32,179 nucleotides of DNA, from positions 1 to 32,179 of the forward strand of contig JANLPS010000037.1 in the NCBI GenBank assembly GCA_031367385.1, in the 5' to 3' direction. Under the pieces are notes generated by a model that saw only the letters and a list, made by a program, of their open reading frames with translations, did no database searches and had not been told where the DNA came from. Position numbers and translations under genes: made by a program. The DNA is from Archangium sp. GTDB lineage: Bacteria; Myxococcota; Myxococcia; Myxococcales; Myxococcaceae. The stretch's first letter is position 1. Each line of letters begins with the position of its first letter. This document shows, piece after piece, positions 2,002 to 10,268 of the stretch.

Positions 2002-3948
2002 CTAGGCCGCTGCCTGCAGCTGCCGCGCGATCACGTCGAGGTTCAAGTCGACGTTCGGCATGTCTGCCAGCATGGTCTCTGGGTCGTACTGAAACTCGGC
2101 CTGCGGCACCGTCAGCAGCGCCGAGATCGCAGGCTCGCCCTTCTTGTCGCCGAACTGCGCGAACACCACCCGGCCGCGCTCCAGCTGCAAATGCCCCTCT
2201 TGCGGCCCGTTTCTCACCAGCAAGCGCCCCGACTTCTGCCCGGTGCCGAGAATCTTGATGAGCTCGATCGCCGCCAGCTCGTCGAAATTGCCGCGCACCA
2301 GGCGACCGGGCCCACCGTGCTCGATGCGATCGATGAACGCGCCCCGAATGGTGATCGCCGCGTCGTCTGGGTTGAGCGGCACGGGCACAAAAGCCGTCAC
2401 CCCGGCCTGCACCAGGCGCTCGCGGCTCGTCGGGTCGGTCGGGTTGCCCAACACCAGCACCGGTACCGACGCGCTCTCGGGTCTGGCCCGAATGAACTGC
2501 GTCATCGCCACGATGTCGCTCACCCCGTACCCAAGCCCCACCACCAACGTGTCGGCCTCGTTGCTCAGCGCCGCGTCGACCACTCCGTCGAGCTTCACCA
2601 CGGTCTGCACCACCAGCCCAACCCGGGCCAGCGCATCGAGCAGGTCGGTTCGCACCGCCTCGTCTGGGTCGGCGACGAAGATCTGCCGGCCATCATTCTC
2701 GACCCGCTGCCGCAACAAATCGCCGCTCTGCAACGCGGCCAGGGTGTCGACGATCACCGGGTCGAAGAGCGTGTTGCCTTGCTCAACCAAGAAGGCCAGC
2801 GCCTCCTCTTTGCTCAGAATGCGGCCGAACCCGTTGTTCACGCTCCGGGTCAAATCGAGAAACGCGTCGACCGCCGAAATGATCCTCGCCGGAGCGGGGA
2901 TGTCTTCTCCCTTCGCTCCCTGCGGTACACCCGAGCCGTCATACGCCTCGTAGAGGTGCGCCAGAATCGCGTTCACCGCCGGCGGCAGGTGCACCGATTC
3001 GAACAGCTTGATCGGCGTGCGCACGAACCGCTTCGCCTCGCCTCGGGTATCAGGCTGCATCGCCAGCAGGGGCAGGGTGAAGTGCTTGCCGCTGGGCTTG
3101 CCGAGGTCGTGCAGATACGCCGCGATCGCCGTGTGCGAGACCTCGCGGGGCTGCAACCCCATTCGCCGGGCGATCAGGCTCGCTTGCCGCGCCACCTGGC
3201 TCGAGTGCCCGCGAAAGTCCTTTCGTGACATCTCGAGCATCGAGACCAGAATGTTCAAGGTCTCGAGGTAGTCGCTCTCGGCGACCGAGCCACGCACCGC
3301 ACCGAGCGACTCACGCATCTGCGTCGGGTTGATTCGGCTCGAGCTGCGGCCCGAATTGCTCCCGCTGCCGCTGCTGATGCCAGACCCCGAGCTGGGCAGC
3401 AGCGCCATTCGCGAATCGGCGCCGTCATAGGCCCGCGCCAGCACCGAGGCGTCGCGCTGCAGCGCCTGCACCCCGGCGCCCTGCTCGAGCGCCGAAAAGG
3501 CAGTCGGGTCGCCGTAGTAGTGCTTCTTGATGCCCGCTTGAATCGCGCTGCGCACCCCGACGAACGCGAACACCTCGTTCATCTCGGTCACCAACGCGAT
3601 CTCCCGCGTCAGATCGGTGTTCTGCGGCTCGGCCATCACGATCGACAGAATTTTTCGCTCGACGTCGAGGGCAATCGGCAGAAAATCTTGCGCCTCGGCC
3701 ATGCGCACCGGCACCTTGTCGAGCACGTGCGGCGCAATGGTGGCCTTGGCCAACTTCTCGGCTGAAACGAAGCGGGTGTTGAACTGCTGAGCCAAGAACC
3801 GCAGCAGCGCGTTCTCTTGCACCAACCCCAGCTCGACCAGGCAATCGCCGAGCCGGTGACCGGTGATTTTCTGGTGCGCGAGCGCCTGGTCGATGGCCTC
3901 TGCCGAGACCAGCCCTGCCTCAATGAGTCGCTCGCCGAGACGTTTCAT
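2002..3948 (-). CDS. MshEN/GspE-N + HD-GYP-like + receiver-like + DUF4388 signalling protein
   Basis: Tandem RLGxxLxxxGLV...LxxQ motifs at the N-terminus; HSSQVA..LHDLGK..YDGSGVP..ARII..VDAF; a CheY-like segment; C-terminal DUF4388-like G.F...L...KSGRL...G.L.LE.GRVV.A. Start set at MKRLG (3948). Confidence 0.85.
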   Translation of the reverse strand: MKRLGERLIEAGLVSAEAIDQALAHQKITGHRLGDCLVELGLVQENALLRFLAQQFNTRFVSAEKLAKATIAPHVLDKVPVRMAEAQDFLPIALDVERKILSIVMAEPQNTDLTREIALVTEMNEVFAFVGVRSAIQAGIKKHYYGDPTAFSALEQGAGVQALQRDASVLARAYDGADSRMALLPSSGSGISSGSGSNSGRSSSRINPTQMRESLGAVRGSVAESDYLETLNILVSMLEMSRKDFRGHSSQVARQASLIARRMGLQPREVSHTAIAAYLHDLGKPSGKHFTLPLLAMQPDTRGEAKRFVRTPIKLFESVHLPPAVNAILAHLYEAYDGSGVPQGAKGEDIPAPARIISAVDAFLDLTRSVNNGFGRILSKEEALAFLVEQGNTLFDPVIVDTLAALQSGDLLRQRVENDGRQIFVADPDEAVRTDLLDALARVGLVVQTVVKLDGVVDAALSNEADTLVVGLGYGVSDIVAMTQFIRARPESASVPVLVLGNPTDPTSRERLVQAGVTAFVPVPLNPDDAAITIRGAFIDRIEHGGPGRLVRGNFDELAAIELIKILGTGQKSGRLLVRNGPQEGHLQLERGRVVFAQFGDKKGEPAISALLTVPQAEFQYDPETMLADMPNVDLNLDVIARQLQAAA

Positions 3949-4035: not shown

Positions 4036-4785
4036 TTACGACTGCGACGGAGGCTCGCCCACCAGCGCGGTGAGCGGCTTGAACGAGAGCCCCTCTGGCA
4101 AGCCGGGGTCGCGCTTGAGCTCGGGCTTCTCGGCACGCGCCTCGTCGGTCTGCGGCTTGCGCTCGACCCGGGGGCCGCGCTCACGCCGCTCATGCCGGCG
4201 GCTGGGTGAGGCCGGTGAAACCCCCGCGGGAGCCGCTTCTTTGCCCTGCATCGCGGTCAGCAGCACATCGAGCGCCGCCACGACCTTCGGGTCATCGAGC
4301 AACCGCAAGATGCGCTGACGCATCGCCTTGGGCGACGAACCGGCCACAGGCGTGCTCGGGGCCGTTGGGGCCGTCGTACCCGCATCAGCCGCCGTCACTT
4401 CAGGCTTCACCGGCTCCGCAGGCGCCACGTACTCGAACTCGCCCGCGTCGATGGGCTCAGGGTCGAGGCGCTCGAGACGGTCGATCACCATCTGCAGCTT
4501 GCCGTGAAAGGTGCCGATCTTGCCTTGCACCAGCAGGTAATCGCCCACCGCGAACGCGGCCTCGGCCGGCTCGGTGTTCTCGAACACCCGGGCATCGATC
4601 TGCCCCGTCTTGTCGACCAAAGAGATGGCCAGGTAGGGCTTGCCCGACCGGCTCATGTGCTTCTCTTTGCTGATGGCCTTGAAGACGGTGTGCAGCACTG
4701 CGCCGTTCTTCACGTTTTTGACGTAGATCTTCTGAATGCGCTCTTCTGCGGCGCCGGGCTGTTCTGTGGTTTCGGTCTGGTTCAC
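4036..4785 (-). CDS. OB-fold nucleic-acid-binding protein (YhaM/Cbf1 N-terminal-like, no HD domain)
   Basis: SRSGKPYLAISLVDKTGQIDARVF...GDYLLVQGKI..F.GKLQ resembles the YhaM OB fold; followed by a low-complexity charged tail. Confidence 0.75.
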   Translation of the reverse strand: MNQTETTEQPGAAEERIQKIYVKNVKNGAVLHTVFKAISKEKHMSRSGKPYLAISLVDKTGQIDARVFENTEPAEAAFAVGDYLLVQGKIGTFHGKLQMVIDRLERLDPEPIDAGEFEYVAPAEPVKPEVTAADAGTTAPTAPSTPVAGSSPKAMRQRILRLLDDPKVVAALDVLLTAMQGKEAAPAGVSPASPSRRHERRERGPRVERKPQTDEARAEKPELKRDPGLPEGLSFKPLTALVGEPPSQS

Positions 4786-4829
4786 GGTCGTGCGACACTA
4801 CACACAACTCCCGTCCTACGAGAACCACC

Positions 4830-5465
4830 ATGACGAGCTTGCTCCTGATTCCTCTGATGCTCCTGACCGCCGACGAGCCGCGCTGGGAGCTCTCCGCTGA
4901 AGACACGGGCGTGAAGATCTACGGCCGCAAACGCCCCGACAGTGAAATCAGAGAGATGAAGGCGATGGGCCTGGTCGACGCAACGCCCCAAGAGATCTGG
5001 CACGCCGTGCGCGACCTCGAGCACTACACCAAAACCATGCCCTACATGGAGGAGGCCAAAATCCTCTCCCGTGAAAGCGACGACAAGGTGATTCTCTTCT
5101 ACTCGAAGATCAACACGCCCCTGGTCGACCGCCGCGACTACATCATCAAGCTGCTCGACGAGAGCGATTGGAAGGAGGGCAAAGGCTTCTTGAAGGTCTC
5201 GTGGACGGTCGTGAACGACAAAGACGACCTGATGCCAGTGAAGGGCGACGTGGTGCGGGTGCGGGTCAACGACGGCTACTGGCTGCTCGAGCCTCGCGAA
5301 GACGCCAAGAAGACCTTCGTGACCTATTACATCTACACCTCGCCCGGCGGAGCGATACCCAACTTCATCGCCAACAAGGGCAACAGCATCGCCGTGCCCA
5401 AAGTCTTTGACGCGATTCGCACTGCCGTCGCGAACGATCGCAAAGCGGCCGCTGCGAAGAAGTAG
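4830..5465 (+). CDS. START-domain (SRPBCC) lipid-binding protein, probably exported
   Basis: Short hydrophobic N-terminus; W....GVKIY.R......E.KA.G, P.V..RDY, GYWLLEP, PGGAIP..IAN are START motifs. Confidence 0.85.
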   Translation: MTSLLLIPLMLLTADEPRWELSAEDTGVKIYGRKRPDSEIREMKAMGLVDATPQEIWHAVRDLEHYTKTMPYMEEAKILSRESDDKVILFYSKINTPLVDRRDYIIKLLDESDWKEGKGFLKVSWTVVNDKDDLMPVKGDVVRVRVNDGYWLLEPREDAKKTFVTYYIYTSPGGAIPNFIANKGNSIAVPKVFDAIRTAVANDRKAAAAKK

Positions 5466-7670: not shown

Positions 7671-7859
7671 ATGAGCACCGATAAAAAAGGCACGAAGATT
7701 TTGGCGCGGACGTTCTTTGCCCAACTGCGTGCGGGTGGTTACACTCAGAACCAGATCATCGACATTGCCAGCGAGCTGATTGACCTGGTGACTGTCGACT
7801 TGAAAGCAGATGTGAAGACTGTTGACGGCGCGCAGCAAGACAATCGCGCGCACGCCTAA
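7671..7859 (+). CDS. Small hypothetical protein (62 aa, amphipathic helical)
   Basis: AAGGGGA RBS before ATG 7671; MSTDKKGTKILARTFFAQLRAGGYTQNQIIDIASELIDLVT; has its own terminator. Confidence 0.75.
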   Translation: MSTDKKGTKILARTFFAQLRAGGYTQNQIIDIASELIDLVTVDLKADVKTVDGAQQDNRAHA

Positions 7860-7947
7860 CAGTCGGTGGCCACGAAGGCACCGCTGGAGTTCCGGTCTGG
7901 TACCGGGGTTTCAGGGTCCTTCGAGGTCAAGCGGTAGAACCGCAGTC

Positions 7948-7979
7948 AAGACCCGGCCTGGTGCCGGGTTTCGTTTTTT
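7948..7979 (+). terminator. Rho-independent terminator
   Basis: AAGACCCGGC-CTGGT-GCCGGGTTT followed by CGTTTTTT, between convergent genes. Confidence 0.8.
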
Positions 7980-8639
7980 CTAGGGCTGGTTCGAGCGGCT
8001 GCGTTGGCGAAGGTACGCCGCGTTCGCCATCACCACGAGTAACCCCAACGTCATCGCCCAGAACACGTAGCTCTGTGTCCACTCCAGCGACGCGCCCCAG
8101 ACACCGAGCGCCGCGAGGCCGAAGAGCACGTCGAGCCACGCTGGCTTCTTCGACTCGTGCATCAGGGCGCCGCCCAAGAAGGTCAGGGGTACTCCCACGA
8201 TGACCTGGCGGGTGATCGCCGTGGGGTTTGCGAAGATGGTCTCGGCGTTGTGCACCAGAATCGCGGCGAAGATGACGACCGTGCCGATGGCGAGCACCAA
8301 GACTCCGGCGGCCGCGATGTCTTTGGTGAGCTTGGCTTTCTCGTCGAACTGCTGAATGGCCAGATCGACCAATTGCTCGAGCGCCGAGTTCAACATCTCG
8401 GCGAACAGAATCAGCATCACGCAGAACAGCATGGTGACTTTTTCAGCGAGCCCCAGCGGTATGCCCTGGCCGACCTGCGCCACCAGCAGCGCTGAGATGA
8501 GGTGCATGCGCATGTTGCGCTGATGCATCACGGTGTACAGCAGGCCGCTCCAGGCGTGCGTCATCGAGCGGTAGAAGGTGCCCGCGCTGTTTGGGGCTGT
8601 GTAGGGAGCCGGTTTTTCCAAGCGCTGCAGAGCTACCAC
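7980..8639 (-). CDS. dgkA: Prokaryotic diacylglycerol/undecaprenol kinase family protein with extra C-terminal TM helices
   Basis: S..HAWSGL......QRNMRMH, AEMLNSALEQLVDL, AKLTKDIAAAGVL are DgkA signatures. Confidence 0.85.
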   Translation of the reverse strand: MVALQRLEKPAPYTAPNSAGTFYRSMTHAWSGLLYTVMHQRNMRMHLISALLVAQVGQGIPLGLAEKVTMLFCVMLILFAEMLNSALEQLVDLAIQQFDEKAKLTKDIAAAGVLVLAIGTVVIFAAILVHNAETIFANPTAITRQVIVGVPLTFLGGALMHESKKPAWLDVLFGLAALGVWGASLEWTQSYVFWAMTLGLLVVMANAAYLRQRSRSNQP

Positions 8640-8827
8640 GTCAGGTTCTTCTGTGTCGCATCGTCAATTGCGGCGGGGGTTCACCGAGGTCTCCGCCGAG
8701 CCGTGCCAGTCGCAACCCGAGTCGTGCTCGGTCTTGTTCGCCTGGCCCGTCGTTCAAAGGCGGTTCGCCGTTGACGTGCGTCTCCATACTCCGCGGTCGT
8801 GAAAAACCGCTCCCAGCCTTGAACGCT

Positions 8828-8901
8828 GGGTCCATAGCTCAGCCCGGTAGAGCAGCAGACTCATCCTCTGCGTGTCGAAGGTTCGACTCCTTCTGGACCG
8901 G
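8828..8901 (+). tRNA. Atypical tRNA-like element, anticodon CAT (Met/Ile2-derived; probably not a decoding tRNA)
   Basis: Full cloverleaf: GGGTCCA/TGGACCG acceptor (G1:G72 mismatch), D GCTC/GAGC, anticodon stem GCAGA/TCTGC with loop CTCATCC, T stem GAAGG/CCTTC with TTCGACT. C37-C38, G73, no encoded CCA. Confidence 0.8.
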
Positions 8902-9119
8902 TCGTCTGCGCGATGAGCCGGAGTGATGACGGGCCGTTCGTGTCACCACCGGTGCCGCGTGGCCGTGCTGTCTCGCACAGCGTTGGGGGCCGTTCGCCTT
9001 CAGTGACCTGCGAGAACACCACGGCCTTGCGCCACGGGCAGGCCACGGGCGGCGGTGCTCGCGGTCTTGGGGCACCCCCGGAGTCACTCCCGTGATTCGC
9101 GTGGGCGACCACTTTTTTT
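8900..9119 (+). ncRNA. Putative ~210-nt rod-like structured RNA between the tRNA-like element and the slipin gene
   Basis: Nested helices found by hand: 8900-8913/9097-9110 (14 bp), 8920-8927/9083-9090, 8947-8951/9053-9057, 8961-8967/9020-9026, TCTCGCA/TGCGAGA, 8981-8990/8996-9005; T7 tract 9113-9119; no credible ORF. Confidence 0.6.
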
Positions 9120-9155
9120 GCAAAACCAACGCAGTACACCCAAGGAGGCACCATC

Positions 9156-10268
9156 ATGATCATCGACGTCGCGGTTCACGAGCGGGTTTTCGTCATCACC
9201 GAGGGGGTGCCCACCCGGTACCTCGCGCCGGGCCGGCATCGGGTCTGGGCGCTGTTCGACAAGGTCGAGGTCGAGCGAATCGACACGCGCCAGCTCTGGG
9301 CGAACCTCGACGCGACCCGGCTGGCCCTGGTGCCTGCCGAAGACCTGCAGGTCATCACCCTCGACGAGCACCAGCGCGCGCTCGTTCGGCGCAAGGGTGT
9401 GCCGGTGCTCTGGCTGACCGCCGGGGTGCACCAGATCTGGTCAATCGAGCGCCTGATCAACCGCCAGACCAAGGAGCTGTCGCCGCTGATCAAGGTCGAC
9501 GTCTTCGATACCTCTGGCATCGCGGCTCCGCTGCTGAACGCTGACGTCGCGGCGCTCTGCAAGGGCAAGGACTACGTCGAGGCGACGGCGCCTGAGGGCT
9601 CGGTGGTCGTTCGCTACGTCGATGGTCAGCTCGAGGCGGTGCTGTCGGCCGGCCGCCACGCCGCGTGGAACACCATGCGTACCGTTCAGTTGATCGTGAT
9701 CGACCTGCGAGAGCGGTTGCTCCACATCACCGGCCAGGAAGTGATGACCAAGGACCGGGTGTCGCTGCGACTCAACCTGTCGGCGACGTTTCGGGTCAAC
9801 GACGCCAAGAAGCTGGCGCTGGTGGCCCGGGCGCCTGACGACGTGTTGTACCTGGCGATGCAGCTGGCGGTTCGAGACGCCGTGACGACCCGCACGCTCG
9901 ACGAGCTGCTGGCGTCGCGTGAAGAGCTGCCCAAGGTGATGTCGCCGCTGGTCTCTGAGCGCGCGCTGTCACTGGGTCTGCAGCTCATTGAGCTCGGCAT
10001 CAAAGACCTGATTCTGCCTGGTGAGATGAAGGAGCTTCTCAACAAGGTGATTCAGGCCACCAAAGAGGCCGAGGCCAACGTGATTCTGCGTCGAGAGGAG
10101 ACGGCGGCGACCCGATCGCTTGCGCAGACCGCGAAGGTTCTCCAGGAGAACCCGCTGCTGATTCGCCTCAAGGAGCTCGAGGCGTACAAGGAGCTGGCCG
10201 GCAAGGTTGGGCAGCTGCACCTGGTGATGGGTGAGGGTGCGTTGCCGAGCCTGCAGCTCAAGGCATAG
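9156..10268 (+). CDS. Slipin family SPFH/band-7 protein with three N-terminal repeats
   Basis: AAGGAGG RBS; IDLRE......GQEVMTKDRVSLRLN, LDELL, GIKDLILPGEMKELLN.VI.A.K.AEANVI.RREETAATRSL..TAKVL..NP.L.RLKELE. Confidence 0.92.
   Translation: MIIDVAVHERVFVITEGVPTRYLAPGRHRVWALFDKVEVERIDTRQLWANLDATRLALVPAEDLQVITLDEHQRALVRRKGVPVLWLTAGVHQIWSIERLINRQTKELSPLIKVDVFDTSGIAAPLLNADVAALCKGKDYVEATAPEGSVVVRYVDGQLEAVLSAGRHAAWNTMRTVQLIVIDLRERLLHITGQEVMTKDRVSLRLNLSATFRVNDAKKLALVARAPDDVLYLAMQLAVRDAVTTRTLDELLASREELPKVMSPLVSERALSLGLQLIELGIKDLILPGEMKELLNKVIQATKEAEANVILRREETAATRSLAQTAKVLQENPLLIRLKELEAYKELAGKVGQLHLVMGEGALPSLQLKA

Follow-up and report, generated by a model that had tools for sequence, protein, structure and literature searches.

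The window, the whole stretch of 32,179 nucleotides analyzed here, lies on contig C93 of a 7.97-Mb, 98% complete Archangium genome. Our interest is in the interval between a divergent diacylglycerol-kinase-family gene on the reverse strand (7980–8639) and a forward-strand gene for a slipin-family SPFH/Band-7 protein of 370 amino acids (9156–10268, with GGAGG at 9144–9148). Here, all on the forward strand, a promoter-like motif recognized from aligned upstream regions, GTCAG-N17-CGTC (8640–8665), is followed by the predicted 5′ domain of an RNA (8672–8812), whose conserved stem with a T-loop-like GGUUCGAA is degenerate in the window copy; by a short hairpin (8813–8830), seen in the sequence and in most close homologues, the 3′ arm of which overlaps the first acceptor-stem bases; by a tRNA look-alike of the b7a-tRNA type (8828–8901), called by Rfam and ARAGORN; by a rod (8900–9110) delimited by fold and covariation; and by a U7 tract (9113–9119) directly after P1, the closing helix of the rod, which is likely the 3′ end by intrinsic termination. 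The slipin gene starts 37 nt after the U tract. The kinase gene is a neighbor by position in this clade only, adjoining the RNA in many close relatives and absent from the Myxococcus and Corallococcus loci examined. Farther upstream, an open reading frame of 62 amino acids with a good ribosome-binding site (7671–7860, forward strand) had no match in Pfam or NCBIfam, and a strong terminator-like hairpin lies at ~7952–7980.

The slipin gene, which was not part of the first-pass annotation, ties the element to the predicted class of band 7-associated tRNAs (b7a-tRNAs). Its product has an SPFH domain, a long helix, and no evident membrane segment, and its N terminus (9156–9707) is modeled (pLDDT 93.9) as three beta repeats in tandem, each with weak similarity to the first SPFH subdomain. 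The closest named relatives of the protein are from Myxococcaceae.

The rod and the tRNA look-alike

The first-pass annotation had described a rod-shaped RNA of ~210 nt fused to a tRNA mimic, closed by a 14-bp helix that uses G72 and G73 of the cloverleaf and is followed by seven T's. The helix was recovered in full: P1 (8900–8913/9097–9110) has 14 of 14 positions paired, 3 of them G–U, with a pair probability of 1.0; it takes in G8900 and G8901, equivalent to tRNA positions 72 and 73, and is followed by AC and then T7 at 9113–9119. This overlap is peculiar to the window copy; in homologues, the tRNA part and P1 are separated by a linker that varies in length and in some cases includes an extra hairpin. 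The minimum-energy fold of the rod has −133.6 kcal/mol, and the suggested comparison with shuffled sequences gave a z score of −6.26, none of 200 shuffles being as good (opposite strand, z −2.66). The concern that high GC content might produce accidental pairing was not borne out, as none of 700 GC-matched 220-nt windows from the same genome folded as well. Five of the six nested helices named earlier are present in the minimum-energy fold; the remaining one, CACCG/CGGTG, is not, and its place is taken by a 10-bp helix (8933–8942/9044–9053) and a side hairpin (9054–9076) carried by a three-way junction. Two internal loops proved to be conserved: GA-GC-N-GG/CC-C-GU-GA at 8914–8921/9089–9096, adjoining P1, and a 3 × 3 loop CAN/NCC at 8978–8980/9006–9008, near the tip and the apical hairpin (8981–9005). 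The rod occurs as a single copy in the genome. In agreement with the earlier failure to recognize a family, the Rfam scan over the rod found none at gathering score, the tRNA at 8828–8901 being the sole Rfam call. A terminator scan, which requires a short loop, did not flag the U7 region.

The tRNA look-alike matches RF00005 with 52.2 bits in normal arm order, and its D, anticodon, and T arms are intact; its CAU loop ends in CC, it has a G1–G72 mismatch, and it lacks CCA. Among 46 modules compared, 40 have a seven-base anticodon loop with 18 different triplets, and the other 6 have loops of other size (range 4–8 nt); only 6 have a complete 7-bp acceptor stem and 1 a CCA, while the D and T loops are nearly invariant. 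The genome contains three further CAU tRNAs in housekeeping form and two in an array. Judged from these sequence features, the module is unlikely to decode, and a gene annotated as a tRNA with an anticodon differing from genome to genome is mis-called. As a separate observation, the genome has two dense arrays of divergent tRNAs, C4:1512–2331 (10 genes) and C232:14–392 (4 genes, preceded by the GTCAG-N16/17-CGT[C/G] motif described below), which, by analogy with the stress-induced trn operon of Anabaena, can be read as a second tRNA set.

Conservation of the element and its relation to slipin

Covariation among homologues, one of the checks proposed for the rod, supports its pairing: in 20 close homologues, 24 of 34 consensus pairs change on both sides. 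In the same alignment 90.5% of the cells pair, a level reached by none of 500 shuffles and compared with 38–46% in slid controls, although these controls flatter the covariation because the structure came from the same alignment and the sequences are kin. Together with 13 G–U pairs among 81, this bears out the earlier suggestion of structure at the RNA level. Beyond close relatives, we folded the rods of 41 loci picked across the phylum plus Burkholderia, taking the rod ends from the fold and using 20 shuffles each. The rods are 169–322 nt long, mostly 200–235 nt, with a median z score of −4.4; 29 of the 41 are at or below −3 and 7 above −2, and folding of the reverse strand is not consistently weaker. 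Sequence conservation is concentrated at the two internal loops, and the mid-rod aligns poorly between genera. Gaps of one and two bases are frequent among the homologues, which argues against the rod being coding. A T-rich tail 3′ of P1 is present in most Myxococcaceae and weak or absent at distant loci. The rod is thus a conserved RNA-level structure.

We scored the regions upstream of slipin at 84 of 93 loci, 9 being left out for short flanks or partial matches, and found the T-loop at 72, the D-arm at 62, and a long-range closing helix of at least 10 pairs at 67. The order promoter, 5′ domain, tRNA look-alike, rod, U7, and slipin recurs across Myxococcota. At ten scored loci of the family, the T-loop/rod pattern is missing before slipin or found only farther off. 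When five such genomes were searched in full, each proved to have the complete RNA at another site without slipin in that locus, and the separated copies keep the promoter motif, the tRNA part, the rod motifs, and a T-containing end. The RNA remaining whole apart from slipin means that it is not only a leader. At nine of nine further loci, read by eye, GTCAG-N16-CGTG stands directly before slipin. Four of the five separated copies (L227–L230), all from one genus, have in the 5′ domain a permuted V-T-AS-D module besides the normal one. At L003 and L061, too, a module in YrlA order (V arm and T arm, then acceptor hairpin and D arm) shares one RNA in tandem with a normal-order module; all these genomes lack Ro60.

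Slipin was found in 111 of the 208 genomes of the family; counting two weak partial matches as negative gives 109 slipin-positive genomes and 99 others. The tRNA-mimic pattern occurs in 80 of the 208, comprising 79 of the 109 and 1 of the 99, counts to be read with the knowledge that the pattern, derived from copies linked to slipin, does not match the copy in the window, and that kin are not independent. The match in the lone slipin-negative genome looks like an ordinary CAU tRNA. As one deletion can remove both neighbors, the separated cases carry more weight than this co-occurrence. Second copies of the pattern were noticed on other contigs of two genomes (G079:C508:30–67 and G092:C266:2088–2125).

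As for genes of RNA repair, the window contains no rtcB, two rtcB genes lying on other contigs of the genome, and searches for RtcR, RtcA, and RlaP in the genome, which is 98% complete, gave no match. Across 90 Myxococcota loci with this type of slipin, rtcB is beside slipin at one (L163 and L209 counted once). Searches for Ro60 (TROVE) gave no match in the window's genome and two weak matches in the 208 genomes, both in genomes without slipin. The second rtcB (C478:1–1592, L100) has an upstream neighbor whose end it overlaps and which, on visual inspection, looks like ribosome-binding factor A.

Promoter and extent of the transcript

The 23 aligned upstream regions share an invariant GTCAG-N16/17-CGTC and further blocks, which form a stem with a bulged GGUUCGAA; in this 5′ domain, 12 of 20 pairs show double changes, the window's own row being misaligned there. 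The motif precedes 50 of the 84 slipin loci. In the form GTCAG-N16/17-CGT[C/G], it is also found before 21 of 34 tRNA transcription units of the window's genome, the window's unit included, in comparison with 36 of 5,000 random windows (0.7%); the tRNA count leaves out four calls of doubtful status and one unit with a short flank. One rtcB gene of the genome (C240) has the same motif. As it precedes most tRNA units, the motif is of a tRNA type and not repair-specific, and its distribution makes it a candidate promoter for an alternative sigma factor serving stable RNAs in the lineage. It resembles TGTCACA-N16-CGTC, which we take to be the ECF41 consensus. Our literature search found no paper on GTCAG-N16/17-CGT[C/G].

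Evidence of transcription was obtained in a close relative of Myxococcus xanthus, a model organism. We used one raw stranded run (X24, organism A), whose reads, mostly 90–99% alike, were mapped on the M. xanthus AM003 locus (L130), the first mate being taken as antisense to the RNA. On the sense strand, depth is 2,374–3,288 over 4456–4741 and then 1,400, dropping to 500 by 4873, after which it is at background, which is 24–58 on both strands (~40x); the slipin gene is at background. The 5′ read ends pile up at 4438, 4439, and 4450, 19–31 nt past CGTC. The RNA thus starts ~175 nt before the tRNA part and has continuous sense coverage through it into the rod, in line with the proposed joining of rod and tRNA mimic. 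Read ends do not pile up at the tRNA borders, although the library may have lost short RNAs. Over the final ~35 nt of the rod, where the 3′ strand of P1 lies (4874–4902), depth does not exceed background. Reads that begin at 4864 and 4868 do so at the final unpaired bulge (4861–4867), a pattern that fits random-priming bias and may also reflect a trimmed 3′ end. With slipin at background while the RNA is abundant, most of the RNA was probably without slipin at the time of sampling.

By homology, the window RNA is predicted to run from ~8672–8685 to 9119, ~450 nt. A transcript start near 8900, expected earlier, does not agree with the promoter-like motif at 8640–8665 or with the start in the relative: rather than a 210-nt RNA in its own right, the rod forms the 3′ domain of the predicted ~450-nt transcript.

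Related RNAs and possible function

The rod had been thought to recall Y, 6S, or vault-type RNAs, a resemblance for which neither Rfam nor the feature tests run gave a match. 6S RNA is a rod with a large central bubble; the window had no Rfam match to it, the fold has no large bubble, and we rejected this identity. The element is probably not a vault RNA either, the window having no Rfam match to it; in comparison with the vault particle (MVP with its vault repeats, TEP1, and vault RNA), the slipin is alike at the SPFH level only, the repeat match is weak, and TROVE was not found. The features described for bacterial Y RNAs are a Ro60 gene within ~4 kb, GNCGAAN0-1G near the 5′ end, and a length of 80–130 nt (PMC4201824). 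In the element, the sole occurrence of this motif is at the variable loop/T stem (8875–8881), within an RNA of more than 400 nt, and with no Ro60, normal arm order, a misplaced motif, and excessive length, we also rejected a Y RNA.

The closest described class is that of the b7a-tRNAs. According to the accessible text of a 2018 preprint (bioRxiv 10.1101/312249), Burroughs and Aravind predicted in 2016 a band 7-associated tRNA encoded next to genes for RtcB and Band-7 proteins, proposed as an RtcB cofactor and at that time unvalidated, and YrlA at times adjoins Band-7 genes. The class, for which no matching Rfam family came up, shares with our element a tRNA-like noncoding RNA that resembles an authentic tRNA and is next to a Band-7 gene. 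The YrlA-by-Band-7 pairing of that account matches two distant Myxococcota loci, L216 and L219, which have partial matches to permuted YrlA (29.6 and 48.7 bits, below the gathering score of 69). In contrast to the described b7a-tRNA, the look-alike here belongs to a larger RNA (~450 nt) that also has a 5′ domain and a covarying rod of ~210 nt, the window locus has no adjacent rtcB and no RtcR, the promoter is of the tRNA type, the RNA is separable from slipin, and reads exist. The element fits the class on two of three testable features, the Band-7 neighbor and the tRNA likeness, and not on the third, an adjacent RtcB. YrlA itself (RF02553; Chen et al. 2014, PMC4201824) likewise joins a tRNA-elbow module to a rod and is tied to RNA-repair genes, and its V-T-AS-D order is present in the 5′ domain of one genus. 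The main module here is, however, in normal tRNA order, the RNA is three to four times longer, there is no Ro60 in the window's genome or the slipin-bearing genera, and the window has no Rfam match to YrlA.

In Pseudomonas aeruginosa, PA4581.1 ("tRNA-Arg4") lies before PA4582 (slipin)-rtcB-PA4584-rtcA and by qRT-PCR is roughly half as abundant as normal tRNAs (PMC13637947, published in 2026). It is similarly a CCA-less tRNA-like gene before a slipin gene; it differs in being inside an RtcR-controlled operon, and in the accessible portion of that paper it is treated as a tRNA with no mention of a rod. The measurement means that the tRNA part of such an RNA has been detected before. Available parts of two further papers place slipin, rtcB, and a tRNA array of Anabaena in a common translation-stress regulon (PMC10272220) and count the rtc-locus slipin of P. 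aeruginosa among SPFH proteins largely dispensable in the laboratory (PMC13086221). Neither the rod nor the myxobacterial RNA was described in anything our literature search found, although subscription papers and the closed supplements of the preprint may contain a description. The myxobacterial RNA extends a class until now mostly computer-predicted. The locus gives the likely real extent of the RNA and a covariation-backed structure with two candidate protein-binding loops; with the reads from a close relative of M. xanthus, and with naturally occurring genomes where the RNA, slipin, and rtcB have come apart, the role of Band-7 proteins and tRNA mimics in RNA repair becomes directly testable.

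We favor, with confidence about evenly divided, a reading in which the rod is the 3′ arm of a stand-alone RNA of ~450 nt with a non-decoding tRNA look-alike and likely a scaffold for slipin in RNA repair. The tRNA-type promoter at 8640–8665 would start this RNA, and P1 closing before U7 would end it; such termination would give far more RNA than slipin mRNA, an excess seen in one run. With the D/T elbow kept but not the anticodon or the 3′ end, the tRNA module likely acts by shape, presumably on tRNA-handling enzymes such as RtcB. The rod, of ~200–235 nt and with two fixed internal loops, would be the protein-binding arm, like the Ro60-binding stem of YrlA, and oligomers of slipin would stand in for Ro60. 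That the element works most nearly like YrlA, with slipin in place of Ro60, is an analogy to which we give an even chance. A bolder version is clearly more doubtful: the abundant RNA, with its rod of fixed length and either one tRNA elbow or two, could be the RNA subunit of a soluble SPFH cage, an undescribed architecture and a Ro60-free counterpart of Y-RNA and vault particles that would bring damaged tRNA or rRNA to RtcB.

The RNA might instead act alone as a decoy or sponge, its elbow or elbows absorbing anticodon nucleases, toxins, or other tRNA-binding proteins, with the rod as a stabilizing clamp and slipin only co-inherited. Such a role has been suggested for YrlA (PMC7790460), and it would suit an RNA that is abundant with slipin at background, an anticodon loop free to vary, and the two elbow modules of one genus. 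We nevertheless consider it unlikely, for a rod acting simply as a clamp could do without a fixed length and without two internal loops of conserved sequence, and RNA and slipin have both been retained after genomic separation.

Somewhat less probable still is a cis-acting leader, in which P1 and the U tract attenuate slipin and binding or cleavage at the tRNA module under translation stress permits read-through. The position of the element directly upstream of slipin in most genomes, the U tract immediately after P1, and the return of read depth to background before the slipin gene all agree with this. It is harder to reconcile with the five of five genomes in which the RNA stays whole with no slipin behind it, with slipin's own promoter-like motif at the nine of nine loci read, and with distant rods that lack a U tract; attenuation may be a side role at the window locus.

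That the module is a working tRNA (Ile2 or Met, CAU) whose long structured 3′ trailer is cut off is what the ARAGORN call and the 52-bit Rfam match would suggest, yet the G1–G72 mismatch, the CC after the anticodon, the missing CCA, the 18 anticodons and 4–8-nt loops of orthologues, the other CAU tRNAs of the genome, and the lack of read ends at the tRNA borders, in a library that may lose short RNAs, make this very improbable. Chance pairing in DNA of 69% GC, or a mobile palindromic repeat, could account for the poor mid-rod alignment between genera but is scarcely credible given the fold statistics and covariation, a single copy with its position fixed across the phylum, and transcription from one strand.

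In favor of the link to RNA repair in the scaffold reading, a slipin-rtcB pair with a leader of the tRNA-mimic/rod type was found at L209 and in Burkholderia cenocepacia (L183). At the latter locus, a divergent rtcR and a sigma-54 site are followed by a leader (4460–4990) with three T-loop motifs, a tRNA look-alike, and a rod of 199 nt (z −8.8), and then by slipin-rtcB-nucleotidyltransferase. We also noticed that in Escherichia coli (L184:4270–4600) a sigma-54 site and a leader bearing T-loop-like hairpins accompany a slipin-nucleotidyltransferase pair; this leader is present in 1,632 of 5,426 complete genomes.
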